DNA of 64,000 nucleotides from an uncultured virus (IMG/VR IMGVR_UViG_3300024319_000691) (IMGVR_UViG_3300024319_000691), one strand, 5' to 3'. Shown: positions 1,637 through 24,055, numbered from the stretch's first letter. Notes: a model not told the origin generated them from the letters alone. Translations and numbers: made by a program.

Positions 1637-2029
1637 ATGGACAAGATGAGATTCGCATTAATTGCGCACGATAACAAAAAAGCAGACATGGTAGCATTTG
1701 TATCTAAGAGATTAGATTTCTTTAACAGTGATGCAGTAGACATAGTTACCACAGGAACTACGGGGAAAAAGGTAGAGCATGCTGGAATTGATAGAGTTTC
1801 TACTGTTCAAAGTGGTCCTCTAGGTGGAGATGCTGAAATAGCGGCAATGGTAGTTAGAGGAGAAATCACAGGCGTAATATTCATGAGAGACCCTCTAGAT
1901 AAACATCCACATGATGTAGATATATCAATGCTAATGAGACTTTGCGATGTCCATGACATCCCCTTGGCTACCAACTACAGCACTGCAAGTATTCTTATCA
2001 AGTGGTATAGATCTAAATATAAAATATAA
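1637..2029 (+). CDS. mgsA: methylglyoxal synthase
   Basis: ALIAHDNKK, TTGTTG, SGPLGGDAEI, DPLDKHPHDVD, LCDVHDIPLATN motifs. Confidence 0.93.
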   Translation: MDKMRFALIAHDNKKADMVAFVSKRLDFFNSDAVDIVTTGTTGKKVEHAGIDRVSTVQSGPLGGDAEIAAMVVRGEITGVIFMRDPLDKHPHDVDISMLMRLCDVHDIPLATNYSTASILIKWYRSKYKI

Positions 2030-2054
2030 ACAATTTAGTTTTTTTAAGTATAAT
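2028..2054 (+). promoter_or_regulatory. class 2 promoter AAAC-N17-TATAAT
   Basis: Motif match upstream of ORF 2060. Confidence 0.6.
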
Positions 2055-2059
2055 ACAAT

Positions 2060-2305
2060 ATGGATAACATTATCTTCAGACCCGAAAACTTTAACACATG
2101 GTCAATTCAAGCGATAGAGAAAATCGAAACTGTGATTGATTCATGTTCTAGTCTTTCCCATCTAGATGGAGCTAGAAAATTAGTTGATAACTTTACTATC
2201 ATCACTGCACTTGAAGAAGATGATGAAAAATCTATTGAAATAATTATTCACCAGTTGTGGCTCAGAATTAAGTTACAAGAAAATAAAATAAATGGATCAA
2301 AATAA
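2060..2305 (+). CDS. hypothetical protein
   Basis: 81-aa ORF in operon, overlapping next gene. Confidence 0.7.
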   Translation: MDNIIFRPENFNTWSIQAIEKIETVIDSCSSLSHLDGARKLVDNFTIITALEEDDEKSIEIIIHQLWLRIKLQENKINGSK

Positions 2306-2786
2306 AGGTAAAATAGGATTTACAGCAGGGAACTTCGATCTTCTTCACCCTGGATATATTTACACATTCGAAACAGCAAAAGAACACTGTGATTACTTTA
2401 TGGTATTTCTGCAAAGAGATCCTTCGGAAACTAGATTTACTAAATACAAGCCAGTAATTCCATTATACGAAAGATATAAAACTTTAATGGCTATTAAATA
2501 CGTAGACGAAGTAGTTACATATCAAACAGAAGAAGATCTTATTAACTTAATGGAATTTTATAAACCAGATGTTAGAATTTTAGGAGATGATTACATTGGT
2601 AAAAGATTCACAGGAGATCACATGCCAATTGAGGTTATTTATACAACTAGATCACATAATTGGTCTACGACAAGAATTAAAGATTTAATAACTAAGCAAA
2701 CCATCTTACAGAATCCTTCTATTATAGAAGAAAACGTAAAGTCATTAACAGCTGATGAAGCGGCTAAAATAATTAATAACAAATGA
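2292..2786 (+). CDS. cytidylyltransferase-like nucleotidyltransferase (TagD/RfaE family)
   Basis: GFTAGNFDLLHPGY (HxGH variant), ER...KYVDEV, GDDY, STTRIK. Confidence 0.85.
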   Translation: MDQNKGKIGFTAGNFDLLHPGYIYTFETAKEHCDYFMVFLQRDPSETRFTKYKPVIPLYERYKTLMAIKYVDEVVTYQTEEDLINLMEFYKPDVRILGDDYIGKRFTGDHMPIEVIYTTRSHNWSTTRIKDLITKQTILQNPSIIEENVKSLTADEAAKIINNK

Positions 2787-3712
2787 GAATAATAGTAACT
2801 GGTGGATTTGGATTTATAGGATCTGAATTTGTAAACACGATTGGTAGAAAAAACCCAACAGCAGAAATTGTAGTAGTTGATAAAATGACTTATGCTGCAA
2901 ATCCAAATAACATTAAAACTAAAGTAACATTAATTCAGAAAGATATTTGCGAAGTAACAGTAGAAGATCTAGGAGAATATGATTTCCTTGTTCACTTCGC
3001 AGCTGAGAGTCATGTAGATAATTCTATTAAAGACGGAAGACCTTTCGTTAGAACAAACGTTGAAGGAACGTTCAATCTTTTAGAGTGTGCTAGACAAAAC
3101 CCTAATCTTAGAAAATTTATTCATATTTCTACAGATGAAGTTTACGGCGACATGGACGACATTAGTAAGGACGTAGTAGCGGATGAAGAATTTCCGCTAG
3201 TAGCTTCTTCTTATTATTCGGCGACTAAAGCATCATCAGACATGCTAGTCCTTTCAGCTAACAGAACATTTGATCTTCCATATATTATTACCAGAACATG
3301 TAACAATTATGGTGCTCATCAACATAAAGAAAAATTTATCCCAACTATCATGCGCTCTATTAAAGAAGGAAAGAAAATTCCTGTTTATGGAGATGGAAAG
3401 CAAGTTAGAGAATGGATGGACGTAACAGACAACACTTTAGTTATTTATAACTTAATGATGTCAGACCGAATTAACGAAGTATTTAATATTGGTTCAGAGG
3501 AAAGATACACTAATTTAGAAGTTATTGAAATGATAGGAAACATCATGGGCAAAACTCCTGAATTTGAATTTGTAGCAGACCGTCTAGGACATGATAGAAG
3601 ATACGCACTTAATAGCTCAAAGGTAAATGCTATTTTAGGAGAAATGATCCCTTTATCCTTTGAAGAATTTTTAAAAGAAGAAACATTTAAACTACTAGAA
3701 ACTCAATTATGA
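2783..3712 (+). CDS. rmlB: dTDP-glucose 4,6-dehydratase
   Basis: TGGFGFIG, DKMTYA, HFAAESHVDNSI, STDEVYG, YSATKAS, DRLGHDRRYA. Confidence 0.93.
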   Translation: MRIIVTGGFGFIGSEFVNTIGRKNPTAEIVVVDKMTYAANPNNIKTKVTLIQKDICEVTVEDLGEYDFLVHFAAESHVDNSIKDGRPFVRTNVEGTFNLLECARQNPNLRKFIHISTDEVYGDMDDISKDVVADEEFPLVASSYYSATKASSDMLVLSANRTFDLPYIITRTCNNYGAHQHKEKFIPTIMRSIKEGKKIPVYGDGKQVREWMDVTDNTLVIYNLMMSDRINEVFNIGSEERYTNLEVIEMIGNIMGKTPEFEFVADRLGHDRRYALNSSKVNAILGEMIPLSFEEFLKEETFKLLETQL

Positions 3713-3924
3713 ATAAGAAATTAATCGAAATGCTAAGAGCTAGTGCCTTAGCTGAAAAATCAAAAGCACTTTTATCTTTAGATCTTTTAGGAAATAAAGG
3801 ATCTGGTATTGGAGATCACTCAACTGGTGATTTCTATAAAAATGCAGAAGAAGCTTTATCAATGTTAGTTGACGCTGATGATAAGTTAGAAGCACTTGAC
3901 AAGTATTTTCCAGAAGATTTGTAA
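3709..3924 (+). CDS. hypothetical protein
   Basis: 71-aa ORF translationally coupled to rmlB. Confidence 0.7.
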   Translation: MNKKLIEMLRASALAEKSKALLSLDLLGNKGSGIGDHSTGDFYKNAEEALSMLVDADDKLEALDKYFPEDL

Positions 3925-3960
3925 AACATTGCACTTTTTTTGAAAAAAAGCAGCCCGAGA

Positions 3961-3992
3961 TTTTTTTATCTCGGGTTTTTTTGTTATATTAG
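3961..3992 (+). promoter_or_regulatory. class 1 (putative early) promoter repeat, copy 1, overlapping a hairpin
   Basis: TTTTTTTATCTCggg...TTGTTATATTAG; forms CCCGAGA/TCTCGGG stem followed by T-run. Confidence 0.65.
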
Positions 3993-4019
3993 TATAGTAA
4001 TTAATAAACAAAGCAATAA

Positions 4020-4961
4020 ATGAAAAGATATTCGAAAGGAATTAAAACCAACGACCACACATTAACAGATGTATTTTCAGCCTATGAATGTAATAGAGAA
4101 ACTCAATTCGTAGAAGCCTTTTTTGGCAAAGAAGAAATGAACACTGTAATCGAAGCATGTGGTTTATCCAGCATTGAAGATATAGACAGAAAATTAGAAA
4201 CACCTATCACAATTGGAATGGCAACCAAAAGAGCTGATCTTACGTTTGAAGACGAAGGACAGATGTATTATTTTGAAGTGATGAGTCAATCTCAAAAGGG
4301 TAAATGGGACAATGATCACCATGAACAGTTCTATCTTAAATCCAATAGACTTAAACAGGATTACGAACAAGTATATTCATTTGCAATTGCGTTTAAAGAA
4401 TTCGATGCACCCTATCTTAATGAATTTTCTAAGATGGAAGATTCTTATGCTATACATCTAAGGTTCAATGATCAAGGTTATTTTGCAGATGTATATGGAA
4501 TAGAAGAAAAGAAGGAAAAGGTTTCAGTTAAACTCGCTTCGCTTGAAGAGCTTGGTTTAAAATGGATGAAAGTCGCTTCATCTGAAATGGGATTCAAAAA
4601 TAGAAAAGAATTACCACACCGCAGTAGATACCTTTATATTGGAAAGGCTTATACTGGTTCTAGATTGGGTATAGAATGGGTTATTAATCAAAAGAACCAT
4701 GACCTTGGAATTAAAATATCAGGATATTTAGTTAAAGATCATGGACTTACTAGAATCATAGATGAAACAGGAAAGATAATTGATAGTATAAAATCTAAAG
4801 TTCCAGGTTTTGAATTCGTAAAAGAAAGCACAGGTGCAAATGATAAAACAATTTCATTTAAATTTGATAACACTGATTTCTCAGAAGAAAATGTAAAGCT
4901 GCTAAAGGATATCACAGTTGCTTTCGCCGAAGAATTAGGAATAGAAAACTTACTAAAATAA
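4020..4961 (+). CDS. putative PD-(D/E)XK endonuclease with C-terminal DUF4268-like region
   Basis: RADL...YFEVMSQ...WDNDHHEQ resembles the RxDI...IENQ...DHDHLGQ pattern of EndoMS/DUF4268-type nucleases. Confidence 0.55.
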   Translation: MKRYSKGIKTNDHTLTDVFSAYECNRETQFVEAFFGKEEMNTVIEACGLSSIEDIDRKLETPITIGMATKRADLTFEDEGQMYYFEVMSQSQKGKWDNDHHEQFYLKSNRLKQDYEQVYSFAIAFKEFDAPYLNEFSKMEDSYAIHLRFNDQGYFADVYGIEEKKEKVSVKLASLEELGLKWMKVASSEMGFKNRKELPHRSRYLYIGKAYTGSRLGIEWVINQKNHDLGIKISGYLVKDHGLTRIIDETGKIIDSIKSKVPGFEFVKESTGANDKTISFKFDNTDFSEENVKLLKDITVAFAEELGIENLLK

Positions 4962-4968
4962 AACAAAG

Positions 4969-5145
4969 ATGAGCAAAGAAGACGTAAAGGTATTGGTTAA
5001 TCTACTAACCAATGCAGCAGATGAAATTAAGTATGCAAACATGGACCACGAAACACAATTCGCGTATAACGAAGGAATTGAAGATCTAATAATTCTAGTA
5101 GAATCAAAATTAGAAAAATTAGCCGTAAACAAAACGCATATATAG
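4969..5145 (+). CDS. small hypothetical protein (58 aa, not in ORF track)
   Basis: ATG at 4969 to TAG at 5145: MSKEDVKVLVNLLTNAADEIKY... Confidence 0.6.
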   Translation: MSKEDVKVLVNLLTNAADEIKYANMDHETQFAYNEGIEDLIILVESKLEKLAVNKTHI

Positions 5146-5153
5146 AGTATAAT
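5127..5153 (+). promoter_or_regulatory. class 2 promoter AAAC-N17-TATAAT
   Basis: Motif match upstream of 5170. Confidence 0.6.
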
Positions 5154-5169
5154 AATTAAACACATTCTT

Positions 5170-5436
5170 ATGAAAAGTATCTTAGAAGAAGCAAACGAAA
5201 TTGTAAACAACAGGAGTGAAGAAGCGGATCGTAATTACGGTCCTTTTTCAGAAGGCATGGACAGAGCTGCCCTAATATTTAAAGGTATGACAGGCCATGA
5301 TGTAAGTGGCGCTGATATGTTTAAAGCATTAGTTGCTCTTAAGTTTTCAAGAGAAAGTTACAATCATAAAAGAGATAATCTCTTAGATGCAGTAGCATAC
5401 ATTCAAGGTTTAGATAATTACGAAAACGGAAAATAA
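5170..5436 (+). CDS. DUF6378-like small helical phage protein
   Basis: ILEEANEIVN.R...YG....M...LKFSRE....KRDNLLDAVAY pattern. Confidence 0.6.
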   Translation: MKSILEEANEIVNNRSEEADRNYGPFSEGMDRAALIFKGMTGHDVSGADMFKALVALKFSRESYNHKRDNLLDAVAYIQGLDNYENGK

Positions 5437-5790
5437 ATGAAAGTACAGGTAAGAAGAACCGAGTATCGATATATTGCCGAAGCAACTCCTATCGTAACAT
5501 TAGACACTGAAAAATTCCCTAATTATAAAGGAGCAACCGAAGAAGAATTCGTTCAATACTTAGCAGAAAACTATTGGGAGCTGGAAGGAATGGACGAATT
5601 AGTAGGAACTGATATCGGGGTAAATGACGAAGAAACACATAACGCATTAGGAGATTTAGTCTATTCCGAAATGGACGTATATTCTGATTCATCTGAAAAA
5701 GGATATGAAGGAGAAATACAAATAGGAGAAGAAGACCAATCATACAGAAAACATGGAGGATTTAACATAAAACACGGATCACAAATATGA
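5437..5790 (+). CDS. acidic hypothetical protein
   Basis: 117-aa ORF abutting neighbours. Confidence 0.7.
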   Translation: MKVQVRRTEYRYIAEATPIVTLDTEKFPNYKGATEEEFVQYLAENYWELEGMDELVGTDIGVNDEETHNALGDLVYSEMDVYSDSSEKGYEGEIQIGEEDQSYRKHGGFNIKHGSQI

Positions 5791-7010
5791 AAATAGCATT
5801 AGTATTAGCAAAAGGAGTTGAAGGTTGTGGACTCACAAGACACACAATCGAATTTTATAATTGGCTTATAAAAGAAGGCCATGATGCCACGATTTATGCA
5901 GCGGTAGAAAAGAAATGGCCTCGCCATAAAACTACAGATATTGTTTGCACTGAATTTAAAAGAAAGGATATTCCTAATATCGCTAAAGAACTTGAAAAAA
6001 GTGATGTAGTATATTACACATCGTATCCGCATAAATCAGTAGGAGATGAATTCAACGAAGATTTTATTGAGCACTGTATTTATGGTTTAGAAAATCCTAT
6101 TAAAATAGGAAACTGCTTAGATCATAACACTGCAAACTTAGCAAAGAATTATAAGTATTGGGAAATCATGAAATCAATGGACGCTATGTTCAACTATTCT
6201 GCAAGATCTAATTTTGCAAATAAATTAAGAGAACATGCACCTGATACTCCATTAATCGAAATGAATCTTAATCCTTATGACTATGATGCATGGTCTAATA
6301 TTGTGGTTCCAGTTGAAGAACAAGAAAGAAGAACTACATACTTTGGAAGATTTGCTGGATTTAAAGATCCTTTTAGAATGTTCGATATTATGGAACTATT
6401 GAAAGGTAATAATTTCGTAACAGAATGTAGAGGAGTTGAAAGATCTATTGGAGCTCTTCCTATGTTTTTACAAGAAGATAGAAAAACTCTAAGAGAAGAT
6501 ATCTTTGAAGTTCATGAAATCAAAAACCCTGTTACATATCCACAAGTCGAAGACAGAATGTATATGTATGGGCCTTATAATTTAGCAGAAGGAATGGCAG
6601 AACTTGGAAAATCAATGTTCGGTGCAGAATTCTTTAACTTACCAGAAAGACTCTATGGTTCAATGATTGAATATGCAATGTGTGAGGTTATTGCAGCGGG
6701 AACTATACCACTATTTGACAAACACTGGGGAACTCACGTTATTCACAGAACAGAAGGAGTTCCTTTCATAGAACTTGAAGATTTTGCAATCTTCGTAGAC
6801 AAAGAAGATATTGCAGCTTCTATTCCACAGATTTTAGAATTAGCAAACAATAACGAAAGAAGAGAAGAGTTTAGAAAAAACTCTTTAAGATTAGCTAAAT
6901 TACACAACGCGCCAGAAGTTGTTAACAATGATCTCTTTGAAGCTATTAACAATGTTAATAAAAGATCAGTAGAAAAACCAGTAGAATTAAAAACAGATTC
7001 ATTATTTTAA
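5787..7010 (+). CDS. agt: DNA alpha-glucosyltransferase-like glycosyltransferase (T4 Agt homolog, GT-B)
   Basis: KGVEGCGLT, GRFAGFKD..RMFD, RGVERS, IEYAMCE..AAGTIPLF are colinear with T4 Agt motifs as remembered (RGLEGCGVT, GRTTTWKG..QMFD, EGLERS, LEY...GACGTIPVF); similar length of about 400 aa. Confidence 0.8.
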   Translation: MKIALVLAKGVEGCGLTRHTIEFYNWLIKEGHDATIYAAVEKKWPRHKTTDIVCTEFKRKDIPNIAKELEKSDVVYYTSYPHKSVGDEFNEDFIEHCIYGLENPIKIGNCLDHNTANLAKNYKYWEIMKSMDAMFNYSARSNFANKLREHAPDTPLIEMNLNPYDYDAWSNIVVPVEEQERRTTYFGRFAGFKDPFRMFDIMELLKGNNFVTECRGVERSIGALPMFLQEDRKTLREDIFEVHEIKNPVTYPQVEDRMYMYGPYNLAEGMAELGKSMFGAEFFNLPERLYGSMIEYAMCEVIAAGTIPLFDKHWGTHVIHRTEGVPFIELEDFAIFVDKEDIAASIPQILELANNNERREEFRKNSLRLAKLHNAPEVVNNDLFEAINNVNKRSVEKPVELKTDSLF

Positions 7011-7017
7011 GTAGAAT
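6991..7017 (+). promoter_or_regulatory. class 2 promoter AAAC-N17-TAGAAT
   Basis: Motif match upstream of dCTPase and the polymerase N-half. Confidence 0.6.
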
Positions 7018-7046
7018 AATAAGTAACATTAAAAAGTAGCGAAAAA

Positions 7047-7514
7047 ATGGCAAACATTGACAACGAATGTAAAGATCTAGAAGTAAAAGATTTTTACGAC
7101 CAATCAACAACACACTTAGCAGATATCATGGAAAACCAAAAGAAGATGCAAGAGCAGACTTATGGTTTTAACTTTGATAATATGACAATCCGAGAAATTA
7201 TGGATTTCTGGCACTGTAACACACATGCAGTAGTTGACGAAATTCATGAAATGACAGATGCTCTAGGCGGTATTAAAGACGGAAGTGGTAATGCAGTATG
7301 GAAATACTGGAAAAAAGACTTCACTAAGTATGATAAGTTAAAAATTTCTGACATGTCCGAAGGCGACAAAAAAGAATTGTATATGGAATGGGTAGACATT
7401 CTACACTTCTTTATTAATTACGCCGCTTCAATTGGGCTAGATGCTAAAACAGCATACAACTACTACTTCGCAAAAGCAGAAGAGAATGTTAACCGTCAGA
7501 AAAATAACTATTAA
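7047..7514 (+). CDS. dCTPase/dUTPase (T4 gp56-like, all-alpha NTP pyrophosphatase)
   Basis: DEIHEM, WKYWKK, ELYMEWVDILHFF, KAEENVNRQKNNY. Confidence 0.8.
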   Translation: MANIDNECKDLEVKDFYDQSTTHLADIMENQKKMQEQTYGFNFDNMTIREIMDFWHCNTHAVVDEIHEMTDALGGIKDGSGNAVWKYWKKDFTKYDKLKISDMSEGDKKELYMEWVDILHFFINYAASIGLDAKTAYNYYFAKAEENVNRQKNNY

Positions 7515-8911
7515 TGATATTAGATATTGAACAGAGAGACAGGGATGTTATCATCTCTTACTACGACACCGAAGGTAAAGTAGCATTTAAACAATATCCA
7601 ATTTCACAGTATCAGAACTGGTATGTATGTAATGATAATGATAAAGGCAGAAGTCTAGATCATAAAAACTGGGATGGCAGATCAGTCAAACTAGGAAGTG
7701 CAAGAAGATATAATAAGTTTTCTTTAACTTATTTCTTAGATTCATTACCCGCAAAGGATAAAGAAGAAATCTTTGCATACAATATGCCTAAAACATACTT
7801 CGTCGATATTGAAACTGAAATCGTAGATGGCTTTCCAAAAGCTGAAGAAGCTAAAAGTAGAATCCTATCATTTTCCATAATTACACCAGAACATAAAGCT
7901 ATTGTATTAGGATTGGAAGATATGGATTCTAAAAGCATCCAAAAAATTGAAGACGATACTAATAAGTATTTCAAAGACTTTGATCAGGATTGGGAATTCA
8001 AATATCAGAAATTCGAGTCAGAATATGACATGGTCTATACGTTCTTAATGAAGTTCCTACCTAAGTTTCCAATGATGACAGGCTGGAACTTTATTAATTA
8101 TGATTGGCAATATATTGTAAACAGATGTAAAAGATTACAAATTGATATTGCTGAAGTTTCTATGACACAATCTTTGGATAGAAATGACAGCAGACCCTTA
8201 CATATTGGAATCTTAGATTACATGCAATTATATGATAAGTATGATAGAAGTGTAAAGGTAAAAGAATCTAATGCACTTGATTATGTCTCAGGTCAAGTTC
8301 TTAATGTTAACAAGATTAAATTTACAGGATCTCTACAGGATTTATATAGGGATGATTTTGTAAAATACATTTACTACAATGTAGTCGATTCCGTATTGGT
8401 TTATTATATAGATCAAAAGTTGAAATCGATGGAAGTTCTTTTAACCTTGGCAAACATCACAAAGATGCCTCTATATAAAGCAGCATCGCCAGTGGCAGTT
8501 ACAGAATCTCTGATTGCACGAAAATTATCAGAAGAAGGTAAACGAATTGGATCTGAAAAGAAGGAAGACAGTGAAAAGAATGCACAATATGCCGGTGCTT
8601 ATGTAAAAGAACCCATTACTGGATATTATGCAGGTGTAAGTGCATTTGACTTTGCATCACTATATCCTTCTATAATGAGACAATTTAATATTTCACCTGA
8701 CGCCTTTGTTGAAAAGGTAGCAAAGCATGAAGTCGCTGAGCGAAGAAAGGATAAAGAAGTAATCGTTTGTGAAAACGGAGTAGTCTATAAACAAGAGACT
8801 TCAATGTTAAAGAAAATTCTAGGAGATTTATATGATCAGCGTAAAGATTATAAACAAACCTCATACGAATATTTCACTAAAGCCGACAGACTTAAAAAAA
8901 GATTAAGATAA
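7514..8911 (+). CDS. family B DNA polymerase, N-terminal part (3'-5' exonuclease + motif A)
   Basis: ExoI DIETE, ExoII GWNFINYD, ExoIII YNVVDS, YAGAYV, motif A DFASLYPS; ends in the fingers region. Confidence 0.92.
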   Translation: MILDIEQRDRDVIISYYDTEGKVAFKQYPISQYQNWYVCNDNDKGRSLDHKNWDGRSVKLGSARRYNKFSLTYFLDSLPAKDKEEIFAYNMPKTYFVDIETEIVDGFPKAEEAKSRILSFSIITPEHKAIVLGLEDMDSKSIQKIEDDTNKYFKDFDQDWEFKYQKFESEYDMVYTFLMKFLPKFPMMTGWNFINYDWQYIVNRCKRLQIDIAEVSMTQSLDRNDSRPLHIGILDYMQLYDKYDRSVKVKESNALDYVSGQVLNVNKIKFTGSLQDLYRDDFVKYIYYNVVDSVLVYYIDQKLKSMEVLLTLANITKMPLYKAASPVAVTESLIARKLSEEGKRIGSEKKEDSEKNAQYAGAYVKEPITGYYAGVSAFDFASLYPSIMRQFNISPDAFVEKVAKHEVAERRKDKEVIVCENGVVYKQETSMLKKILGDLYDQRKDYKQTSYEYFTKADRLKKRLR

Positions 8912-9039: not shown

Positions 9040-10047
9040 ATGAAACCATCAATATTTAAAGAAAGAATAGAATACAAACCGTTTGAATATCCAGTATATT
9101 ATACTGAAGGATGGTTAAAACAAGCACAGGCGTTTTGGTTACATACCGAAATTTCAATGCAAGGCGATGTCAAGGATTGGAATGAAACACTTACAGATTC
9201 TGAAAAGAATTTAGTTGGAAATATTCTTTTGGGGTTTGCACAAACTGAATGTGCAGTTTCAGATTATTGGACAGGGATGGTTACTGATTGGTTTCCTAAA
9301 TGGGAAATCAAACACATGGCAATGTTGTTTGGTTCTCAAGAAACTATTCATGCAACCGCTTACTCTTATTTAAATGAAACATTAGGCCTTGAAGATTTTG
9401 AAGCATTCTTACATGAACCAACAACAGCAGAAAGATTCGATTATTTAATGAATACAGAAGCAGAATATACTCATGAAGACCTTTTGAAAAATCCAACAGC
9501 TAGGAAGGATGTTGCTAGATCTTTAGCAATATTCAGTGCATTTGGAGAAGGAGTTGCATTATACTCTTCATTCGCCGTTCTTTATTCTTTTCAAATGAGA
9601 AATAAACTTAAGGGAATCGGACAACAAATGAAGTGGTCAGTTAGGGATGAATCTCTTCATTCAAAAATGGGTTGTCAATTATTTAACCACATGTGCGAAG
9701 AATATACTGATCTTAGAGATTCAGTTCAATCTCAAGTAGAAGAAGCAGCTAAGTTAATGGTTGAAATGGAAATGAAGTTTATTGATAAGATGTTTGAAAT
9801 GGGAGATTTAGAAAATCTTAAGAAAGAAGATCTTAAAGAATTTATTAAGAAAAGAGCTAATGAAAAATTAGCAGAAATAGGATATCAATCTATCTTTGAA
9901 TACAATGAAGAAAGTGCTTCAGAATTAGATTGGTTCTATCACTTAACAGGTGGACATACACATACGGATTTCTTTGCAGTAAGACCTACTGATTATTCTA
10001 AAGCAGGCGAAGATGAAAACTGGGATGAAGACGATTTGTTTTCATAA
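9040..10047 (+). CDS. nrdB: ribonucleotide reductase class I beta subunit
   Basis: AFWLHTEI, ETIHATAYS, EGVALYSSF, RDESLH, HTDFFA. Confidence 0.95.
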   Translation: MKPSIFKERIEYKPFEYPVYYTEGWLKQAQAFWLHTEISMQGDVKDWNETLTDSEKNLVGNILLGFAQTECAVSDYWTGMVTDWFPKWEIKHMAMLFGSQETIHATAYSYLNETLGLEDFEAFLHEPTTAERFDYLMNTEAEYTHEDLLKNPTARKDVARSLAIFSAFGEGVALYSSFAVLYSFQMRNKLKGIGQQMKWSVRDESLHSKMGCQLFNHMCEEYTDLRDSVQSQVEEAAKLMVEMEMKFIDKMFEMGDLENLKKEDLKEFIKKRANEKLAEIGYQSIFEYNEESASELDWFYHLTGGHTHTDFFAVRPTDYSKAGEDENWDEDDLFS

Positions 10048-10074
10048 CAAATCAATAATTCTAATATAAAATAT

Positions 10075-11925
10075 ATGATGATAAGAAATTACAACGACGC
10101 ACCAAACCCCGAATACAATGAAAAGGGAAAAGAAAGAAACTTCGGAGAATCTGAAGGATGGAAATTAGGAGTAGACTTCCCAGTATGGGCTAATACTGAA
10201 GTTTATGTAAAAACTGTTTCTAAGGGATATTTACTAGAAGGAGAAACTCCAAAGGATGCATACTGGAGAGTATCGACAACAGTTGCACAAAGATTAAGAA
10301 AGCCAGAATTAGCAAGTAAATTCTTTGATTATATGTGGAAAGGATGGTTAAATCTTGCAACTCCAGTTTTTTCAAACACGGGTTCAGAAAGAGGTCTTCC
10401 AATTTCATGTTTCGGTATAGATGTAGCAGATTCAATTCACGATATAGGTTCAAAGAATTTAGAATTAATGTTACTTGCTAAACATGGAGGCGGTGTTGGT
10501 ATCGGAGTAAATCAGATAAGACCGGCAGGAGCAACCATTACAGGAAACGGAACTTCAGACGGAGTAGTTCCATTTATAAAAATTTATGATTCTACTATTT
10601 TAGCAACTAATCAAGGTTCAGTAAGAAGAGGTGCAGCGTCAGTCAATATAGATATAGAACATGATGATTTTTGGGAATGGTTAGAGGTTAGAGAACCTAA
10701 GGGTGATGTAAATAGACAATGTTTAAACGTACATCAATGTATCGTAGTATCTGACGGGTTTATGCAAAAGATCGAGGCTGGAGATAAAGAAGCTCGTAAA
10801 AGATGGGCCGCTGTGATTAGAAAAAGAAGAGCAACAGGAGAACCTTATATAATGTTTAAGGGTAATATCAATAGAATGAATCCGGATGCGTATAAGCAAA
10901 ATGGTTTAAAGGTTTATATGACTAACATCTGTTCTGAGATTACTTTACACACCGATGAAAATCATTCATTTGTATGTTGTTTATCTTCTGTGAATCTTAA
11001 AAGATATGAAGAATGGAAAGATACTGATTTAATCTATACTGCAACTTACTTTTTAGATGGAGTTCTTCAGGAGTTTATTCATAGAGCGAAATATATGAGA
11101 GGCTTTGAAAATGCAGTAAGATCCGCTGAAAAAGGTAGAGCATTAGGTTTAGGAGTTCTCGGATGGCATACTTATTTACAAGATAGAAATATTCCATTCG
11201 ATTCTTTGACAGCTCAATTTGAAACTAGAAAGATATTTTCTCAAATCAAAGTAGAAAGTGAAAGAGCAAGTAGAGATTTAGCTACAGAATTTGGAGAACC
11301 TCTTTGGTGTGTAGGAACTGGAATGAGAAACACACACTTAAGAGCAATTGCTCCTACTGTTTCTAATTCTAAATTAGCAGGAAATGTTTCACCAGGCATT
11401 GAACCATGGGCAGCAAATGTATTTACTGAACAAACTGCAAAAGGAACTTTTATTAGAAAGAACCCTGCACTTGAAAATATGTTAACTAAGATCAAGCAAA
11501 ATAAGAAAACAGTATGGGACAAAATACTAGAAGACGGTGGTTCAGTTCAAGGCGTTGATGTATTAGGAGAATATTGGGTAAAGGAAGGAAGTAGTGATGC
11601 CCCGATTAAGCAAGCCACTTATGACAAATTAACAGATCACGAAAAGGATCTTTATATTTCTGTTAAAGATGTATTTAGAACCTTTAAAGAAATTAATCAA
11701 ATGGAATTAGTTAAACAAGCTGGTGTAAGACAACAATATATTGATCAAGCAGTTTCATTAAATTTAGCTTTTCCTACACAGGCTGAACCTAAATATATTA
11801 ATCAAGTTCATTTAGAAGCTTATAAGCAGGGAATAAAAACTCTTTATTATATGAGAACAGAATCTGTATTAAGAGGAGACATCGCACAGCGAGCAATGGA
11901 AGATTGTTTAGCATGTGATGGATAA
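10075..11925 (+). CDS. nrdA: ribonucleotide reductase class I alpha subunit (no obvious ATP-cone)
   Basis: ATPVFSN, ISCF, GGGVG, QGSVRRGA, TNICSE, AIAPT, KTLYYMR, C-terminal CLAC. Confidence 0.95.
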   Translation: MMIRNYNDAPNPEYNEKGKERNFGESEGWKLGVDFPVWANTEVYVKTVSKGYLLEGETPKDAYWRVSTTVAQRLRKPELASKFFDYMWKGWLNLATPVFSNTGSERGLPISCFGIDVADSIHDIGSKNLELMLLAKHGGGVGIGVNQIRPAGATITGNGTSDGVVPFIKIYDSTILATNQGSVRRGAASVNIDIEHDDFWEWLEVREPKGDVNRQCLNVHQCIVVSDGFMQKIEAGDKEARKRWAAVIRKRRATGEPYIMFKGNINRMNPDAYKQNGLKVYMTNICSEITLHTDENHSFVCCLSSVNLKRYEEWKDTDLIYTATYFLDGVLQEFIHRAKYMRGFENAVRSAEKGRALGLGVLGWHTYLQDRNIPFDSLTAQFETRKIFSQIKVESERASRDLATEFGEPLWCVGTGMRNTHLRAIAPTVSNSKLAGNVSPGIEPWAANVFTEQTAKGTFIRKNPALENMLTKIKQNKKTVWDKILEDGGSVQGVDVLGEYWVKEGSSDAPIKQATYDKLTDHEKDLYISVKDVFRTFKEINQMELVKQAGVRQQYIDQAVSLNLAFPTQAEPKYINQVHLEAYKQGIKTLYYMRTESVLRGDIAQRAMEDCLACDG

Positions 11926-12830: not shown

Positions 12831-14030
12831 ATGGATATAAACACACTAATTAACAAGCCCGAAGACGACCTTACGCGGGATGAAATGCAAACCTTGGCGG
12901 ATCACTATCAAACAATGTCCGCCAAGTTTACTGCATACGAACAGGCCGTTAAAGTAACTCTTAACTCGATCTATGGTGCATTTGGTAATAAGTGGTTTCA
13001 CTTTTTTAATATAGACATTGCAGAATCTATTACACTACAAGGACAGAATGCAATTCTATATTCTGAAAAGATTCTTAATAAATATTTTCAAGAGTTTTGG
13101 CCTAAAGATACTGTGGTCCATGAACATTTCAATATTTCTATTAAGAATAAATTAGTAAGACCTTCCGTGGTTTATATTGATACAGATTCATGTTACGTTC
13201 AGTTTGAAGAAATGTATGAATCTATTGAATGGCTAGGAGATAATAAACTACCAATTGATAAGTTTATTATGGAATTATATACGTTCAGAATCAAAGACTA
13301 TATCACGAAATGTATGGCAAAGTATGCCGAAGTTACGAACACAGACAACTTTTTATATTTCGATTTAGAAACAATTGCATATTCAGGAATATGGTTAGCT
13401 AAAAAGAAATATTTACAAGACATTGCATGGGAAGATAAGCTCGAAGTAGACGATAGATACCCTTCTCTTAAGAAGATTAAGACGATTGGATTTGATACTA
13501 TTCAATCTTCTACTCCTACATTAGCAAGAAAGCATTTGACTGAAGCTCTTAAATTGATTTTATCTGAAAAGCCAACTGCAGAGATGTTAAGTAGATTAGT
13601 TTCTTTTTTGAAAACGGCAAAGAAAGAGTTTAAGATGTCTAATGTTGATGAAATAGCTTTCAATAAAAGAACTAATAATATTGAAAAATACATTGTAGAT
13701 GATACGATAGAATTTCAATATGGTTTAAAATGTCCTCCGAACGTCAAGGCAGCAGGATTCTATAACTTCTTAATGAATCAGAATCCAAAATATAAAAACA
13801 AGTATAAAATGATTGGTAATGGCGAAAAGCTAAAATTATATCATTGTAAACATAATGTATGTGAAATGTATGCATATCAACCAGGTGCCCATCCTTATGA
13901 AATTGCACCACAGGTAGATTATGAAACACAATTTGAAAAATCTGTAATAGATCCTATCAATAGAGTATTATCTTCAGTAGGTCTTCAGAGACTAAACAGA
14001 AATCTAATATATTCATCTTCATTATTCTAA
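12831..14030 (+). CDS. family B DNA polymerase, C-terminal part (motifs B, C, thumb)
   Basis: KVTLNSIYG (motif B), SITLQG, YIDTDS (motif C), KKKY, SSTP, C-terminal SSLF clamp-binding-like tail. Confidence 0.92.
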   Translation: MDINTLINKPEDDLTRDEMQTLADHYQTMSAKFTAYEQAVKVTLNSIYGAFGNKWFHFFNIDIAESITLQGQNAILYSEKILNKYFQEFWPKDTVVHEHFNISIKNKLVRPSVVYIDTDSCYVQFEEMYESIEWLGDNKLPIDKFIMELYTFRIKDYITKCMAKYAEVTNTDNFLYFDLETIAYSGIWLAKKKYLQDIAWEDKLEVDDRYPSLKKIKTIGFDTIQSSTPTLARKHLTEALKLILSEKPTAEMLSRLVSFLKTAKKEFKMSNVDEIAFNKRTNNIEKYIVDDTIEFQYGLKCPPNVKAAGFYNFLMNQNPKYKNKYKMIGNGEKLKLYHCKHNVCEMYAYQPGAHPYEIAPQVDYETQFEKSVIDPINRVLSSVGLQRLNRNLIYSSSLF

Positions 14031-14041
14031 AAATAAACAAA

Positions 14042-14218
14042 ATGGATTTTAAAAGTAAAATAATAGAATTGGTTGAACAAACCCCTAATAATTATGAATT
14101 AGGAGATAAGGTAAGAAAAATGATTTGGCCTTTAATTTTTAAAGAAAAAACAATTTCAAATGATCCTAAACAAATTAGTATCTTTGACGAAATAGAAGAA
14201 AGAAAAAACAATGCTTGA
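14042..14218 (+). CDS. small hypothetical protein (58 aa, not in ORF track)
   Basis: MDFKSKIIELVEQTPNNYELGDKVRKM... fills the gap and overlaps next start. Confidence 0.6.
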   Translation: MDFKSKIIELVEQTPNNYELGDKVRKMIWPLIFKEKTISNDPKQISIFDEIEERKNNA

Positions 14219-14399
14219 TCCAAATAATCTTACGGAAGAACAGAATGTATTTGTTGCAAAATACAAAACACTCTATAATAGGCTAGTTTCTCTTCAAGAA
14301 AAAATGGATTCTATGAAAAAGGAATCCGATGTTCTTATTAAAGAACTCGAAACACTAAGAAAACAAGAAAAAAACATATTTAAAAATGGCAAAAAATAA
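14211..14399 (+). CDS. small coiled-coil hypothetical protein
   Basis: 62-aa ORF coupled to uvsX. Confidence 0.6.
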   Translation: MLDPNNLTEEQNVFVAKYKTLYNRLVSLQEKMDSMKKESDVLIKELETLRKQEKNIFKNGKK

Positions 14400-15495
14400 A
14401 GACTTTACATTCGACGATTTAAATAAGCAATTAGCTGATTTAAATCCATTAGGATCTATCATGGAAACTTCAAACTTTTCAAAGGTAACAGATTGGATTC
14501 ACACAGGAAATTATCATTTGAACGCATGTGTATCAGGTTCATTATTTAAAGGATGGCCAAACAATAGATCATCATCTATCGCTGGTCCTTCAGGAACAGG
14601 TAAAACATTCTTAATGTTAAACACAGTTAGAGAAGCTATTGATAAAGGATATAGTGTAATTTATTATGATTCTGAAGCAGCCGTTGATAAGGAACAAATG
14701 GAAAAGTTTGGAATTGATACTTCCAAAGTAAATTACCAACCTACAAATACAGTTCAAGATTTTAGAACTTCTGTAACTACAATTACTAAGAAAATGCAAG
14801 ATGCTAAAAGAGCAGGTGGTGAAGTTCCTAAAGTAATGATTATTTTAGATTCAGCCGGTAACTTAGCGACTGCGAAAGAAATAGCAGATGCAGCAAGTGG
14901 TTCTGACAAATCAGATATGACTAGATCTAAGGTTTTAAAATCTATCTTTAGAATTATAATGACTCCATTAGCAGATCTTAAAATACCTTTCTTATTTACA
15001 AACCATACATACCAATCTCAATCCTTTATTCCAATGCAAATCGCAGGTGGTGGAACAGGACCACAGTATGCAGCATCAATTGTACTGATGTTAAACAAGG
15101 CTCAATTAAAGGACGGAGCTGAAAAAGTAGGTATTATAGTTACGGCTAAACCTGATAAAAATAGATTTGCAAAGCCACATCCTATTAAGTTTCACTTAAA
15201 CTTTACAGAAGGTATGAATCCTTATGTTGGATTAGAACAATATGCTACATGGGATATTTGTGGAATTACTAGAGGAAATATTGTAAAAGGAGAAAAGATT
15301 CCAAAGGCAACAGCAAGAACATGGATATGTAAACACCTAGATCATACTGTTGCGAATAAAGATTTCTTTTCTGAAATGGTATTTACACAAACCGTACTAG
15401 AGCAAATAGAATCGCACATTCAACCTTTGTTTAATTACAACACTGAAATTTCTGAAATTGACGTAGAAGAAATGTTAGAAGATAGTGAAGCATAA
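14386..15495 (+). CDS. uvsX: RecA/UvsX-like recombinase
   Basis: Walker A GPSGTGKT, YYDSE, IILDS, NHTY, GGGTG..YAAS. Confidence 0.9.
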   Translation: MAKNKDFTFDDLNKQLADLNPLGSIMETSNFSKVTDWIHTGNYHLNACVSGSLFKGWPNNRSSSIAGPSGTGKTFLMLNTVREAIDKGYSVIYYDSEAAVDKEQMEKFGIDTSKVNYQPTNTVQDFRTSVTTITKKMQDAKRAGGEVPKVMIILDSAGNLATAKEIADAASGSDKSDMTRSKVLKSIFRIIMTPLADLKIPFLFTNHTYQSQSFIPMQIAGGGTGPQYAASIVLMLNKAQLKDGAEKVGIIVTAKPDKNRFAKPHPIKFHLNFTEGMNPYVGLEQYATWDICGITRGNIVKGEKIPKATARTWICKHLDHTVANKDFFSEMVFTQTVLEQIESHIQPLFNYNTEISEIDVEEMLEDSEA

Positions 15496-19287: not shown

Positions 19288-20957
19288 AAATCAAATCAAT
19301 AGAATTTAAAAACTTTGCATCATACGGAAATTCAATTCAAAGGATAGAATTCGAAGATGATAAAGCGGAGTTGTTATTAACTCTTGGTAAAAATGGTCAT
19401 GGTAAAACTACCATCGCCAATGCAATAGTATATGCACTATACGGTAAAGTTGAAGGTGTTAAGATGGCGGACCTTCCTAATAGAATTAATAAGGAATTAT
19501 GGGTAAGAATAGAACTTCAATGTAAAGGAACTATAGTAGAAATCGAGAGAGGTTTGATGCCTAATAGATTTAAAGTTCTTTTAAATGGAATTGAATTTGA
19601 TAAAGCAGGTAAGAAATCAGTTCAGGATTATTTAGAAGAAGAGATATTCGGAATCCCATATCATGTATTTAAAAACATTATAATTTTATCTGTAAATGAT
19701 TTTAAGTCGTTCTTAACAATGACAAATCATGATAAAAGACAAATCATCGATAAAATGTTTGGATTCTCCATCCTTAATGATATGCAAAAGCAGATTAAAG
19801 ATGAAAGAAGAGATCTTAAAATAGAATTAGATTCTTATGAAAAAGAATTAAGCCAGCTTAGTGAAAATATAGTTTCAGTTAATATGAAATTAAATCAATT
19901 ACTAGCAGAAGCTGACACTAAAAACAAAGAAGAAATAGAATCTTTGAAAACTAGTCTTAAAAAATATGATTCTAATAGAATTAAATTAGAAGAGGCAAGC
20001 ACCAAAGTATCTAAAATGATTACTTCTAATTCTTCTGACTTACAGGAAAAACAATCTAAATATACTTCACTTAAATATGAGTTAGTAGAATTAAAGAAAA
20101 AGCTAGCGTTATATGAAACTGATAAATGTCCAACATGTGAAGGCGAACTAACCTCTTCTTTTCACCAAGAAAGAAAAAAAGAAATAGAGTCTAAGGCAGA
20201 ATCTCTTCCTTCTGATATCTCAAAGGCAGAAACAAAGGTGAATGATATTAAATCTAATATTTCAGATTTAAGAATTAAGGACAAGGCAATTAACGATAAA
20301 GTGTCTACTATTAATACTAACATTAGAAATTTAAAGAATGAATTAGTAAAGATAAAAGATTCTTTAAATTCTAATAATGATTTTTCACACTTAAAGCAAA
20401 TCATTGAAGAATTCGAAATACAAGAATCATCAAAGTCAAATTTAAAGGATGAAACTTCTGGTAACTATAATTTCTTAGAAATAATAGAAGAGGTTCTAGG
20501 TGAAGATGGCGTTAAGAACCTTGCAATTCAAACTATTTTACCAGGTCTTAATGCTAATATTGCCGCAATGGGTCAGACAATGCACTTACCTTTCCATATA
20601 AGATTCGATGAAAAGTTTAATTGTCTTATTAATCATTTAGGAGAAGAGATCAATCCACTTACATTATCTACAGGTGAAAGAAAGAAGGCAGACTTTATTA
20701 TAATTATTGCTATCATTAAAATACTTAAGTTAAGATTTCCACAATTAAATCTTTTATTCTTAGACGAGTTATTATCTTCAGTAGATGCAGATGGAGTCCA
20801 TAATATTCTTAAAATTCTATCACAGGTTATTAAAGATAGTAAGATTAATACTTTCGTAATTAATCACACCGTTCTTCCCCATGAATTATTTGATAAAAAG
20901 ATACAAATATATAGAGAAAATGGATTCTCTAAACTCGAGATAGAGGTTATAGAATAA
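19284..20957 (+). CDS. recombination ATPase, Rad50/SbcC-like (gp46)
   Basis: GKNGHGKTT, CPTC hook, LSTGE, FLDE. Confidence 0.92.
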   Translation: MKIKSIEFKNFASYGNSIQRIEFEDDKAELLLTLGKNGHGKTTIANAIVYALYGKVEGVKMADLPNRINKELWVRIELQCKGTIVEIERGLMPNRFKVLLNGIEFDKAGKKSVQDYLEEEIFGIPYHVFKNIIILSVNDFKSFLTMTNHDKRQIIDKMFGFSILNDMQKQIKDERRDLKIELDSYEKELSQLSENIVSVNMKLNQLLAEADTKNKEEIESLKTSLKKYDSNRIKLEEASTKVSKMITSNSSDLQEKQSKYTSLKYELVELKKKLALYETDKCPTCEGELTSSFHQERKKEIESKAESLPSDISKAETKVNDIKSNISDLRIKDKAINDKVSTINTNIRNLKNELVKIKDSLNSNNDFSHLKQIIEEFEIQESSKSNLKDETSGNYNFLEIIEEVLGEDGVKNLAIQTILPGLNANIAAMGQTMHLPFHIRFDEKFNCLINHLGEEINPLTLSTGERKKADFIIIIAIIKILKLRFPQLNLLFLDELLSSVDADGVHNILKILSQVIKDSKINTFVINHTVLPHELFDKKIQIYRENGFSKLEIEVIE

Positions 20958-20958
20958 A

Positions 20959-20966
20959 GATATATA
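20959..20966 (+). promoter_or_regulatory. class 3 (late) motif GATATATA
   Basis: Recurrent motif before virion-associated genes. Confidence 0.55.
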
Positions 20967-20993
20967 AATCAAATAAAAAGATTTCACTTAAAC

Positions 20994-22331: not shown

Positions 22332-22334
22332 TAA

Positions 22335-23228
22335 ATGGCTACATATAATCTTAAATATAACACGGACGATTCTGTAATTAGGCATATAATTATCGGTCTA
22401 TTGGCAGACTTAAATAATAAAGTTTGGTTTCAAAGACAAGTAAGCGCTAATGAGAGAAAGGATATAGACGTTCCTTTTTATTATTCGATCACAGGAGACG
22501 ATCAATTTTTAAGAGATAATTTTCTATTTACAACAGCAAGTGGCGATGACTGCTACCCTGATCCTGGGTTTGCAGATGGAAATTACGATGTAATTCCAAG
22601 AGGAGTCGCTAGAATTTCTTCAATATCTATAGAATCTTCTAAACTAGTCAATAAAAGAATAATGGGAAATTATTCTAGACTTGATGAAGAAGGAGCTCTA
22701 CAAGCATATTCTTCTGAATTTGAAATGATTCCAATTTTAATAAATTTTGACATAGAAGTTTTAGTATCTTCAATGTTAGATTCTTTAAAGATTACTGAAA
22801 TGATAGTAAAGAAATTATATAAATCTAATTACTTTAACATAGAAGTAGGACATCTAGAAGAAGGAACGTACAGATTACCTTCGTATTATTCTTTACCGGA
22901 TGATTATACAGTGGAGGCTCCAATAGATTTTGGATTCGACGATAAAGACAAATATAAAATAACATTTCCAATAGAAGTAAATTCATTTATACCTTCTTTC
23001 TCAAACACGCCAGACGGAAATCCAGGTTCTGGATCATCTGGAGAATCTGGAGAATCTAGAGCATATAGATATGGTTCAGGTGGATCTTCTGAATTTCACG
23101 CTGGAAATAGGATGTTTGAAATAAAACAAAAATCAATTACATCTAATAAAGGAGAGGCAAAGGATGAGCAATCACAGGCACAACCTGACAATCCTAACAT
23201 AATTGATGAAAACGATACAGATATATAG
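22335..23228 (+). CDS. tail terminator/sheath stabilizer (gp15-like)
   Basis: DVPFYY, IPRG, IPILINFDIEV...LKITEMI pattern of gp15. Confidence 0.6.
   Translation: MATYNLKYNTDDSVIRHIIIGLLADLNNKVWFQRQVSANERKDIDVPFYYSITGDDQFLRDNFLFTTASGDDCYPDPGFADGNYDVIPRGVARISSISIESSKLVNKRIMGNYSRLDEEGALQAYSSEFEMIPILINFDIEVLVSSMLDSLKITEMIVKKLYKSNYFNIEVGHLEEGTYRLPSYYSLPDDYTVEAPIDFGFDDKDKYKITFPIEVNSFIPSFSNTPDGNPGSGSSGESGESRAYRYGSGGSSEFHAGNRMFEIKQKSITSNKGEAKDEQSQAQPDNPNIIDENDTDI
23220..23227 (+). promoter_or_regulatory. class 3 (late) motif GATATATA
   Basis: Motif match. Confidence 0.5.
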
Positions 23229-23257
23229 TTAAACAATAAAATTAAACGAATAATAAA

Positions 23258-24010: not shown

Positions 24011-24032
24011 GACGTATCATCGTAAAATAGAG

Positions 24033-24055
24033 AAGGGACCATTGGTCCCTTTTTT
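24033..24055 (+). terminator. intrinsic terminator
   Basis: AAGGGACC-att-GGTCCCTT followed by T-run. Confidence 0.75.

Follow-up and report, generated by a model that had tools for sequence, protein, structure and literature searches.

The 64-kb stretch of DNA analysed here (64,000 nucleotides, hereafter the window) comes from the uncultured virus IMGVR_UViG_3300024319_000691 and carries, at 5787–7010 on the + strand, a gene for a homologue of the DNA alpha-glucosyltransferase of phage T4 (Agt), which lies next to a gp56-like pyrophosphatase gene and one half of a split DNA polymerase, downstream of a group of sugar-nucleotide genes. An earlier note on this sequence had proposed that the region 1637–8911 encodes a DNA sugar-hypermodification system of a Bacteroidota phage, in which Agt transfers a non-glucose sugar, made by the phage itself, to a substituted pyrimidine. 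All the genes that it named were recovered where it had placed them, on the + strand, including those for RmlB, a cytidylyltransferase, the methylglyoxal synthase MgsA, a DUF6378 protein, RmlC, a second short-chain dehydrogenase/reductase (SDR) and a nucleoside monophosphate (NMP) kinase, with the RmlB-like protein scoring under the cut-off of TIGR01181.

For genome context, we used a longer virus record, G002 (178.7 kb, about 59% complete according to CheckV), which the window matches over its full length (G002 104458–168469) at 99.93% identity, together with the near-identical long records G003 and G005 and a 102.5-kb record, G001, that is 99.99% identical to G002. A further long record, G004 (170 kb, 70% complete, CheckV), represents a clade whose Agt is 78–79% identical to that of the window.

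Agt and the genes around it

Agt matched the Pfam profile AGT (PF11440) with 66.4 bits against a cut-off of 25 (E 3.1e-18), covering model positions 1–352 of 355, and the profile was also matched in G002; the match to PHROG 2888 (alpha-glucosyltransferase) stood at 9.3e-67. In tblastn comparisons, the protein is 26.6% identical to T4 a-gt over 87% of its length and 28.8% identical to gp306 of Bacillus phage G, and a sequence search of the Protein Data Bank (PDB) recovered T4 AGT (1XV5) with E 7.2e-24. An AlphaFold model built on an alignment of 29 sequences reached a predicted local distance difference test (pLDDT) score of 89 and a predicted template modelling score (pTM) of 0.86. Foldseek ranks 1–9 for this model were T4 AGT chains only (E 1e-27 to 1.7e-24, TM 0.75–0.84), followed after a clear gap by PimA (E 4e-11, TM 0.51) and BshA, at E of about 1e-10 and TM of about 0.5–0.6. 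T4 AGT is the sole close solved fold, and no grouping with lipopolysaccharide or protein glycosyltransferases was seen. At the level of profile matches and predicted fold, these data confirm the earlier assignment: the product of window positions 5787–7010 is a genuine member of the alpha-glucosyltransferase family typified by T4 AGT, which we take to correspond to CAZy family GT72.

The donor pocket was compared with that of T4 AGT through conserved columns and by analogy. Residues G13, G15, R188, K193, E295 and E300 are invariant in an alignment of 14 AGT proteins, among them that of T4 and the two paralogues of phage G, and the D112-H113 pair is shared with T4, with E-L in its place in the phage G type. 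As in retaining GT-B enzymes, we take the glycine loop, the R-x4-K and the E-x4-E positions to serve donor binding.

Directly after Agt, the gp56-like dCTP/dUTP pyrophosphatase gene (7047–7514, +) fits its earlier naming, the protein being 30–37% identical to annotated T-even gp56 dCTPases over 83–98% of its length (E 1e-15 to 6e-17) and matching PHROG 173 (1.4e-13) and PHROG 18650. It has neither a Pfam family nor a PDB sequence match, and its predicted model is all-helical and of low confidence (pLDDT 52). The family B DNA polymerase (PolB) that follows is encoded in two halves, an N-terminal one at 7514–8911 (+; PF03104 and PF00136; PHROG 2062, 2.2e-82) and a C-terminal one at 12831–14030 (+; PF00136, 1.2e-17; PHROG 1918, 8.3e-68), separated by the small and large subunits of ribonucleotide reductase (RNR; 9040–11925, +; PF00268, 2.1e-57; PF02867, 2.3e-90) and orf251, a split that is kept in all relatives.

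Homologues of Agt number 69 in a large protein collection, many of them about 40% identical, and the available part of the literature knows the AGT family only from phages. Of 69 close loci, 45 have at least 4 kb upstream of Agt and were judged for gene content. A profile scan of viral contigs added 13 distant Agt loci, nine of which were examined; L112 was set aside for a match that begins at the edge of its contig, and L115, L116 and L118 because they seem to represent one phage with L117. Close relatives keep the Agt-dCTPase-PolB block in place but differ in their sugar genes. The DUF6378 gene (5170–5436, +; PF19905, 4.3e-10) lies directly upstream of Agt in all 45 judged close loci and in four of the nine distant ones (L106, L107, L108 and L109), and the protein may be part of the DNA-modification module.

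The other small genes of the locus are less constant. Overlapping the start of Agt, orf117 (5437–5790, +) has no match in Pfam, PHROG or NCBIfam, is missing from the 82% and 78–79% clades and is absent or just 75–76% identical in some close loci. Further upstream, orf313 (4020–4961, +), likewise without a Pfam, PHROG or NCBIfam match and with a weak PDDEXK_4 lead in Atlas, is missing from the clades with 87–91% and lower Agt identity, and orf71 (3709–3924, +) matches PHROG 1811 (1.7e-6).

Three of the distant loci, L107, L108 and L110, share neighbours with the window at 75–88% identity (gp56-like protein 83–88%, PolB 75–79%), while their Agt is merely 40–42% identical and NTase1 and RmlB (described below) are missing. 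The pattern in G004 is the opposite, with Agt 79% and the gp56-like protein 50% identical, so that exchange or divergence of Agt seems to be independent of that of the pyrophosphatase. In L110, the polymerase halves are separated by the orf251 homologue alone.

A candidate dCMP hydroxymethylase outside the window

The earlier note had remarked that no hydroxymethylase was visible in the window, and indeed no gene of the thymidylate synthase (TS) family was found in the 64-kb window or in the 102.5-kb record G001. A genome-wide search, which it had recommended, proved productive in the longer near-identical records, all three of which (G002, G003 and G005) carry a TS homologue of 299 amino acids, located some 91 kb before the window begins (G002 12889–13788) and about 97 kb from Agt. 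This protein matched PF00303 with 60.1 bits (cut-off 24.3), and in the PDB it matches T4 dCMP hydroxymethylase best (E 8e-16), better than MilA or any thymidylate synthase. Aligned to T4 dCMP hydroxymethylase (1B49) and gp42 of Aeromonas phage 25, it has the catalytic Cys, an Asp at Cys-3 as the acidic residue of position 143, an MRSND block, a retained D169 and an Asp at ThyA position 177. In the available text of Lee et al. (PMC13326640), N177D denotes dCMP as the substrate, L143D/E accompanies hydroxymethyl rather than methyl transfer, and D169N distinguishes the 5-hydroxy-dCMP synthases recently discovered in RB69, DLP3 and RL38J1. Because D169 is kept, the TS homologue is predicted from its signature residues to make 5-hydroxymethyl-dCMP (5hm-dCMP), not 5-hydroxy-dCMP, and is a gp42-like dCMP hydroxymethylase candidate.

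Other genes of the same pathway were also seen. G002 encodes a dCMP deaminase, and neither ThyX nor a canonical ThyA was found in the seen part of this record. A guanylate-kinase-like NMP kinase at 57407–57898 (+; PHROG 1815, 1.3e-38; TIGR03263, 81.5 bits against 160) is a candidate 5hm-dCMP kinase. Four of the nine distant loci (L106, L109, L113 and L114) have, no more than 1.3 kb from AGT, a TS homologue bearing this hydroxymethylase signature, an NTP pyrophosphatase adjoins AGT in five (gp56-like in L107, L108 and L110, MazG in L113 and PRA-PH in L114) and a dCMP deaminase is present in two. Since the distant loci include siphovirus-like and PolA-type phages, the association of AGT with TS homologues and pyrophosphatases is not merely inherited synteny. 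In the 79% clade (G004 20491–27149, locus L090), a canonical ThyA gene and an HhH-GPD DNA glycosylase gene lie just upstream of the DUF6378-Agt pair, and in L111 (501–2154) an HhH-GPD gene overlaps the AGT start.

The remark in the earlier note that 6-bp palindromes are not avoided was examined over 179 kb (G002 plus 710 nucleotides). It holds for the four sites that it named, which occur near expectation (observed/expected: GAATTC 80/103, AGATCT 111/101, TCTAGA 96/95, GGATCC 16/25), and the median ratio is 0.92 for 50 palindromes versus 0.99 for non-palindromic hexamers. It fails for CATATG, which is depleted about nine-fold (5 seen, 45 expected), and for the tetramer GTAC (218 seen, 386 expected, a ratio of 0.57, and 0.34 within the window). 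NdeI, which recognises CATATG, is described in the available part of the literature as still cutting the heavily glycosylated cytosine DNA of DLP1, DLP2, DLP3 and RB69. Avoidance of this site would make sense for a phage otherwise protected by modification, which we regard as no more than suggestive.

Sugar-nucleotide genes, glycan genes and collagen-like fibres

The genes upstream of Agt start with the MgsA homologue (1637–2029, +; NF003559, 149.9 bits against 84; Pfam MGS, 5.5e-13), which is found upstream of Agt solely in clades with an Agt identity of at least 87%. Next come orf81 (2060–2305, +), which has no match in Pfam, PHROG or NCBIfam, and NTase1 (2292–2786, +), a small nucleotidyltransferase of the cytidylyltransferase family (PF01467, 1.3e-13; PHROG 7878, 1.8e-33) whose start is overlapped by orf81. 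NTase1 remains under the NCBIfam cut-offs for rfaE domain II (68 against 181.5) and TagD (66 against 165) and has homologues of 35–46% identity in cyanophages, Vibrio phages and further marine phages, the nearest ones being those of cyanophages and of Vibrio, Caulobacter and Roseobacter phages. It overlaps in turn with the gene for an RmlB-like nucleoside diphosphate (NDP)-hexose 4,6-dehydratase (2783–3712, +; PF01370, 3e-52; TIGR01181, 319 bits, cut-off 365.1), this pair ending 2 kb before Agt; orf81 is kept with both genes in relatives. The RmlB-like protein has TDE and YxxxK motifs, which we take to be a 4,6-dehydratase signature, and its nearest phage homologues are those of Phapecoctavirus (RmlB, 46% identity) and cyanophages.

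Further sugar genes are scattered. RmlC, a dTDP-4-dehydrorhamnose 3,5-epimerase (51099–51677, +; TIGR01221, 192 bits against 155.75; PHROG 8784, 2.7e-54), overlaps at its end with orf161 (51661–52146, +), which has no family, falls into viral hypothetical clusters in Atlas and has a 40% identical homologue directly upstream of the G004 Agt (G004 25403–25885, with Agt at 25929). The second SDR (56521–57414, +; PHROG 540, 2.5e-47), a nucleotide-sugar epimerase/reductase, lacks the TDE motif and has heptose epimerase as its best NCBIfam match (91.7 against 274.6); the SDR-kinase pair is also kept in G004. Past the 3' end of the window, G001 also encodes a eukaryote-type phosphomannomutase (PMM), a 2-oxoglutarate (2OG)-Fe(II) oxygenase, a thioesterase, a second small nucleotidyltransferase and a short RmlD-like protein (230 amino acids, L005:18824–19516; TIGR01214, 69 bits against 224, covering the N-terminal half of the model). 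The Rml genes are spread over about 75 kb; the distance from Agt is 45 kb for RmlC and about 65 kb for both PMM and the RmlD-like gene. An RmlA-type gene (PF00483) was not found in the incomplete records G002, G004 and G005, while the control for this search matched in 14 of 14 genomes.

The extent to which these genes travel with Agt depends on the phages compared. NTase1 and RmlB lie upstream of Agt in 37 of the 45 judged close loci, these 37 belonging to three related clades: RmlB lies upstream of Agt in 26 of 26 loci with an Agt identity of at least 96%, in seven of eight at 87–91% and in four of four at 82%, and in none of seven at 78–79%. In the 170 kb seen of G004, which belongs to this last clade, RmlB, RmlC, RmlD-like, PMM and MgsA are all absent. 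An SDR gene within 8 kb of Agt is missing from all nine distant loci, four of which have less than 6 kb upstream. Conversely, similar sugar modules occur in complete phage genomes in which neither AGT nor a TS homologue was found: P-TIM68 has two nucleotidyltransferases, SDRs, a phosphoheptose isomerase and a glycosyltransferase, and phAPEC8 has rmlBACD beside RNR; the AGT search behind these negatives had matches in G002, G004 and phage G as positive control. The co-occurrence of Agt and RmlB that the earlier note had suggested checking is seen in the clades with an Agt identity of at least 82% and not beyond them, and its central claim that Agt transfers a phage-made, non-glucose sugar finds no support in the 78–79% clade, the distant loci, G004 or the AGT-less phages with sugar modules.

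A different use of the sugar genes is suggested by a second region of the genome. Outside the window, G002 20165–33158 (loci L081/L082) encodes a 1852-amino-acid collagen-repeat fibre protein with an endosialidase-chaperone domain, and DUF2827 and two GT2 genes lie directly upstream of it. Further glycan genes of G002 encode a 624-amino-acid GT2 protein, a DUF6445 protein, an ATP-grasp protein and another GT2 protein, and two prolyl-hydroxylase-type 2OG-Fe(II) oxygenases are present. G004 keeps collagen-like fibres (three such proteins) along with DUF2827 and GT2 genes, whereas its other glycan genes differ (Glf, Ugd, GlmS, a GT1/4, a GT9 fusion, a GT25 and two sulfotransferases) and are joined by an APS (adenosine 5'-phosphosulfate) kinase, a carbamoyltransferase and methyltransferases. 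The placement of glycosyltransferase genes beside collagen-repeat proteins suggests glycosylated collagen-like fibres, as in giant viruses. A toolkit that changes between close relatives is expected for the decoration of virion or surface glycans; it is no proof of such a role, since Glf has also been implicated, in the available part of the literature, in the DNA glycan of RL38J1. The caveat in the earlier note that the sugar genes might instead serve virion or host-surface glycosylation is thus at least as well supported as its main proposal, given the fibre-glycosyltransferase neighbourhoods of both G002 and G004.

A 50-nucleotide, nearly invariant promoter-like cassette follows a T-run and lies 51–67 nucleotides upstream of gene starts, mostly of small genes, with 11 copies in G002 (position weight matrix scan). 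Seven of these lie in the window (3960–4009, 34337–34386, 52185–52234, 53475–53524, 59489–59538, 60594–60643 and 63337–63386) and the others elsewhere in G002. The copy at 3960–4009 (+, 53 bits) stands 60 nucleotides upstream of orf313, between the RmlB unit and the orf313/Agt unit. The cassette resembles a terminator joined to a strong promoter, as a unit of a single temporal class. A separate element, TATAAATA, was considered as a T4-like late promoter and rejected: its 18 copies include none before the portal, capsid or sheath genes and define no timing classes.

The remainder of the window, with a G+C content of 30–37% and genes almost all on the + strand, carries a distant T4-like core, consisting of the split family B polymerase, RNR genes, UvsX, a DnaB-like helicase, SbcCD, a clamp loader and a gp55-like late sigma factor, as well as virion genes for the portal, prohead protease, major capsid protein, terminase, sheath and tube. 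The closest relative of the terminase is that of an uncultured 462-kb phage (43.5% identity), followed by those of Sphingomonas phage PAU, Tenacibaculum phage PTm1 and Flavobacterium phage MaF61 (31–34%). The guess of a Bacteroidota host fits with a family match to the CHU_C type IX secretion domain at 61648–62925. Other genes for DNA and nucleotide metabolism encode an Fpg/Nei-type DNA glycosylase (54645–55478), a flavodoxin-like FMN reductase (55644–56276), a staphylococcal-nuclease homologue (50697–51095) and an NT5C deoxyribonucleotidase (60638–61195), and two adjoining tRNA genes, Ser(TGA) and Asp(GTC), lie at 50107–50273.

A proposed T4-type route, its alternatives and known systems

Taken together, the genes make it probable that the DNA of this phage contains glycosylated 5-hydroxymethylcytosine (hmC). 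From the family memberships, fold, signature residues and neighbourhoods observed, we infer a series of enzymatic steps, the sugar and the target of the sugar genes as follows. The gp56-like pyrophosphatase would remove dCTP, the gp42-like hydroxymethylase (G002 12889–13788) would make 5hm-dCMP, and the phage NMP kinase together with a host NDP kinase would raise it to the triphosphate, which the split PolB would incorporate. Agt would then move a hexose onto hmC in duplex DNA in alpha linkage, with host UDP-glucose as the likeliest donor. The RmlB, RmlC and RmlD-like proteins, PMM, the second SDR and the small nucleotidyltransferases would form a lineage-variable toolkit, most likely for collagen-like virion fibres or host surface glycans. 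To this whole, with T4-route cytosine replacement, a probable host donor and a separate glycan toolkit, we give about an even chance. Of the interpretation in the earlier note, the grouping with T4 AGT stands, and the substituted pyrimidine is accounted for, because a TS homologue of the dCMP hydroxymethylase type is found in the same phage; the use by Agt of a phage-made sugar is not supported.

Several observations weigh against this reading. The hydroxymethylase lies outside the window and is inferred from records 99.9% identical to it, and, with G002 about 59% complete, the missing part may hold RmlA, ThyA or other genes. Although Agt and a gp56-like gene are present in G004, its sole TS in the 170 kb seen is a canonical ThyA, and LR756500 and RsoM2USA carry a hydroxymethylase-type TS without AGT. 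NTase1 and RmlB sit 2–3.5 kb from Agt in the 37 close loci that have them, GT25 and GT10 fucosyltransferase genes follow AGT in L111 and L117, and a GT25 gene lies two genes from the hydroxymethylase in G002. In phage G, two AGT paralogues surround an RmlA-type sugar-1-phosphate nucleotidyltransferase and a HAD phosphatase, and in published phage clusters, as far as described in the available text of Pyle et al. (bioRxiv 10.1101/2023.12.21.572611), DNA glycosylation can depend on partner epimerases or on a cytidylyltransferase together with a HAD-APH enzyme.

Some of these points favour a donor made by the phage, a 6-deoxyhexose or other activated sugar produced through NTase1, the RmlB-like protein and RmlC/RmlD-like proteins, which Agt itself would move to hmC. 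The overlapping NTase1-RmlB pair 2 kb upstream of Agt, its presence in most close loci, the dehydratase motifs of the RmlB-like protein and the score of RmlC above its equivalog cut-off all agree with this, as do the nucleotidyltransferase and phosphatase genes flanked by the AGT homologues of phage G. Agt alleles and sugar genes also co-vary loosely, in that the loci with a 40–42% identical Agt (L107, L108 and L110) lack NTase1 and RmlB. Against it, the 78–79% clade keeps its Agt allele without the sugar genes, both in its seven loci and throughout the seen part of G004, no distant locus has an SDR near Agt, RmlC and the RmlD-like and PMM genes are far off, no RmlA was found in G002, G004 or G005, the promoter-like cassette separates the RmlB and Agt units, Agt retains the T4-type D-H, R-x4-K and E-x4-E positions, and complete genomes of phages without AGT or TS carry the same sugar modules. 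A beta-L-rhamnose donor would, moreover, be unusual for a retaining GT-B enzyme. Precedents for self-made donors have been published, namely a cluster for heptosyl-5hmC, partner epimerases and the UDP-arabinose of RB69 and DLP3, as described in the available parts of these reports. On balance, we consider direct transfer of a phage-made sugar by Agt unlikely.

Similarly improbable, in our judgement, is a two-stage glycan, in which Agt would prime hmC with alpha-glucose and a GT-A enzyme (GT25 or a GT2) would add a sugar made by the phage, for example rhamnose. In G002, the genes for the hydroxymethylase, orf100 and GT25 are closely packed (12889–14913), and GT25 follows AGT, together with the GT10 fucosyltransferase, in two of nine distant loci (L111 and L117), accompanied in L117 by an NTP_transferase fusion; these two may, on the other hand, be one lineage. 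The GT25 genes are barely alike: relative to that of G002, L111 is 26% identical, G004 gives no match and L117 none at E 1e-4. The few phage homologues of the G002 protein (eight records) come from cyanophages, annotated with 2OG oxygenases, and from Burkholderia AP3, which fits protein modification, and the GT2 genes adjoin those for collagen-like fibres. In the available literature, T6 TAGT, which extends glucosyl-hmC, has a GT-A fold near GT2, and di- and tri-saccharides on modified cytosine have been published. GT25 itself was ruled out as a relative of T6 TAGT, its few phage homologues being from cyanophages and Burkholderia AP3. An hmC glycan with a phage-made, rhamnose-type 6-deoxyhexose, whether added by Agt directly or by GT25/GT2 on an Agt-installed hexose, appears rather unlikely; it would, if true, be the first deoxyhexose found on phage DNA.

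That DNA is not glycosylated at all, with Agt inactive or acting on another acceptor and the TS homologue and pyrophosphatase serving ordinary nucleotide metabolism, is very unlikely: the canonical ThyA as sole TS in the seen part of G004, the gp56-like proteins of phages not known for hmC, such as PAU, and the strong avoidance of two C-containing palindromes would fit, but the signature residues of the TS homologue speak against a thymidylate synthase, the catalytic positions of Agt are conserved, AGT has TS homologues and NTP pyrophosphatases as neighbours in phages of unrelated types and, in the available literature, the family is reported from phages alone.

The preferred reading, in which a T4-type route modifies cytosine and host glucose is added, would mean that T4-type cytosine replacement and sugar coating reach large uncultured Bacteroidota phages, and that AGT is a widespread environmental DNA-modifying family travelling with hydroxymethylase-type TS homologues. 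It would also bear on the restriction and CRISPR resistance of such phages, as well as on the recovery and reading of their DNA in metagenomes.

Among known systems, the glucosyl-hmC system of T-even phages is matched in that homologues of gp56, gp42 and a-gt and a dCMP deaminase are all present, Agt lies beside the dCTPase and polymerase, and its fold and conserved positions match T4 AGT. Unlike in T-even phages, identities are just 24–37%, the hydroxymethylase lies about 97 kb from Agt, the kinase is a guanylate-kinase-like candidate, and a beta-glucosyltransferase homologue was not noticed in this phage, which is a much larger, only distantly T4-like myovirus of a putative Bacteroidota host. 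Bacillus phage G, whose gp306/gp313 region holds the best cultured-phage match to Agt, likewise has a TS homologue of the same signature and a dCMP deaminase within 10 kb, but differs in its paired AGT paralogues around sugar-activating genes and in the E-L that its AGTs have where T4 and this phage have D-H. Phapecoctavirus (phAPEC8) shares a 46% identical RmlB and has its Rml genes beside RNR genes; it has a full rmlBACD set without AGT or TS homologue, whereas here RmlA was not found and the genes are scattered.

Phages that encode the synthesis of donors for their DNA glycans have been published before. According to the available text of Pyle et al., which gives a mass of 419 amu for 5-hexosylmethyl-dC, a cytidylyltransferase, a HAD-APH enzyme and a GT-B enzyme give heptosyl-5hmC, and RB69 and DLP3 are described as making UDP-arabinose for their own DNA. 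With the MT/TET-dependent glycosyltransferase clusters of Pyle et al., the arabosyl-5-hydroxycytosine clusters of RB69/DLP3 and that of RL38J1 (PMC13326640), as far as their descriptions were available, the present phage shares a TS-family enzyme for modified dCMP, a dCTPase, a kinase, a GT-B enzyme acting on DNA (here as predicted) and sugar-nucleotide genes in the genome, some near the transferase. It differs in a TS homologue that keeps D169, with hydroxymethyl-dCMP rather than 5-hydroxy-dCMP as predicted product, in sugar genes of Rml type rather than for arabinose, Galf or heptose, and in a coupling of these genes to Agt that is not conserved. Rhamnosyl-DNA has already been speculated on in print: a literature search found no report showing rhamnosylated phage DNA, and in the available text Olsen et al. 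raise, as a speculation for Phapecoctavirus, that rhamnose might glycosylate hydroxymethylated bases. In comparison with these systems, the locus most likely represents a T4-type system for glycosylating hmC, in a phage lineage and a range of hosts that are new for it, with host glucose as the simplest choice of sugar.

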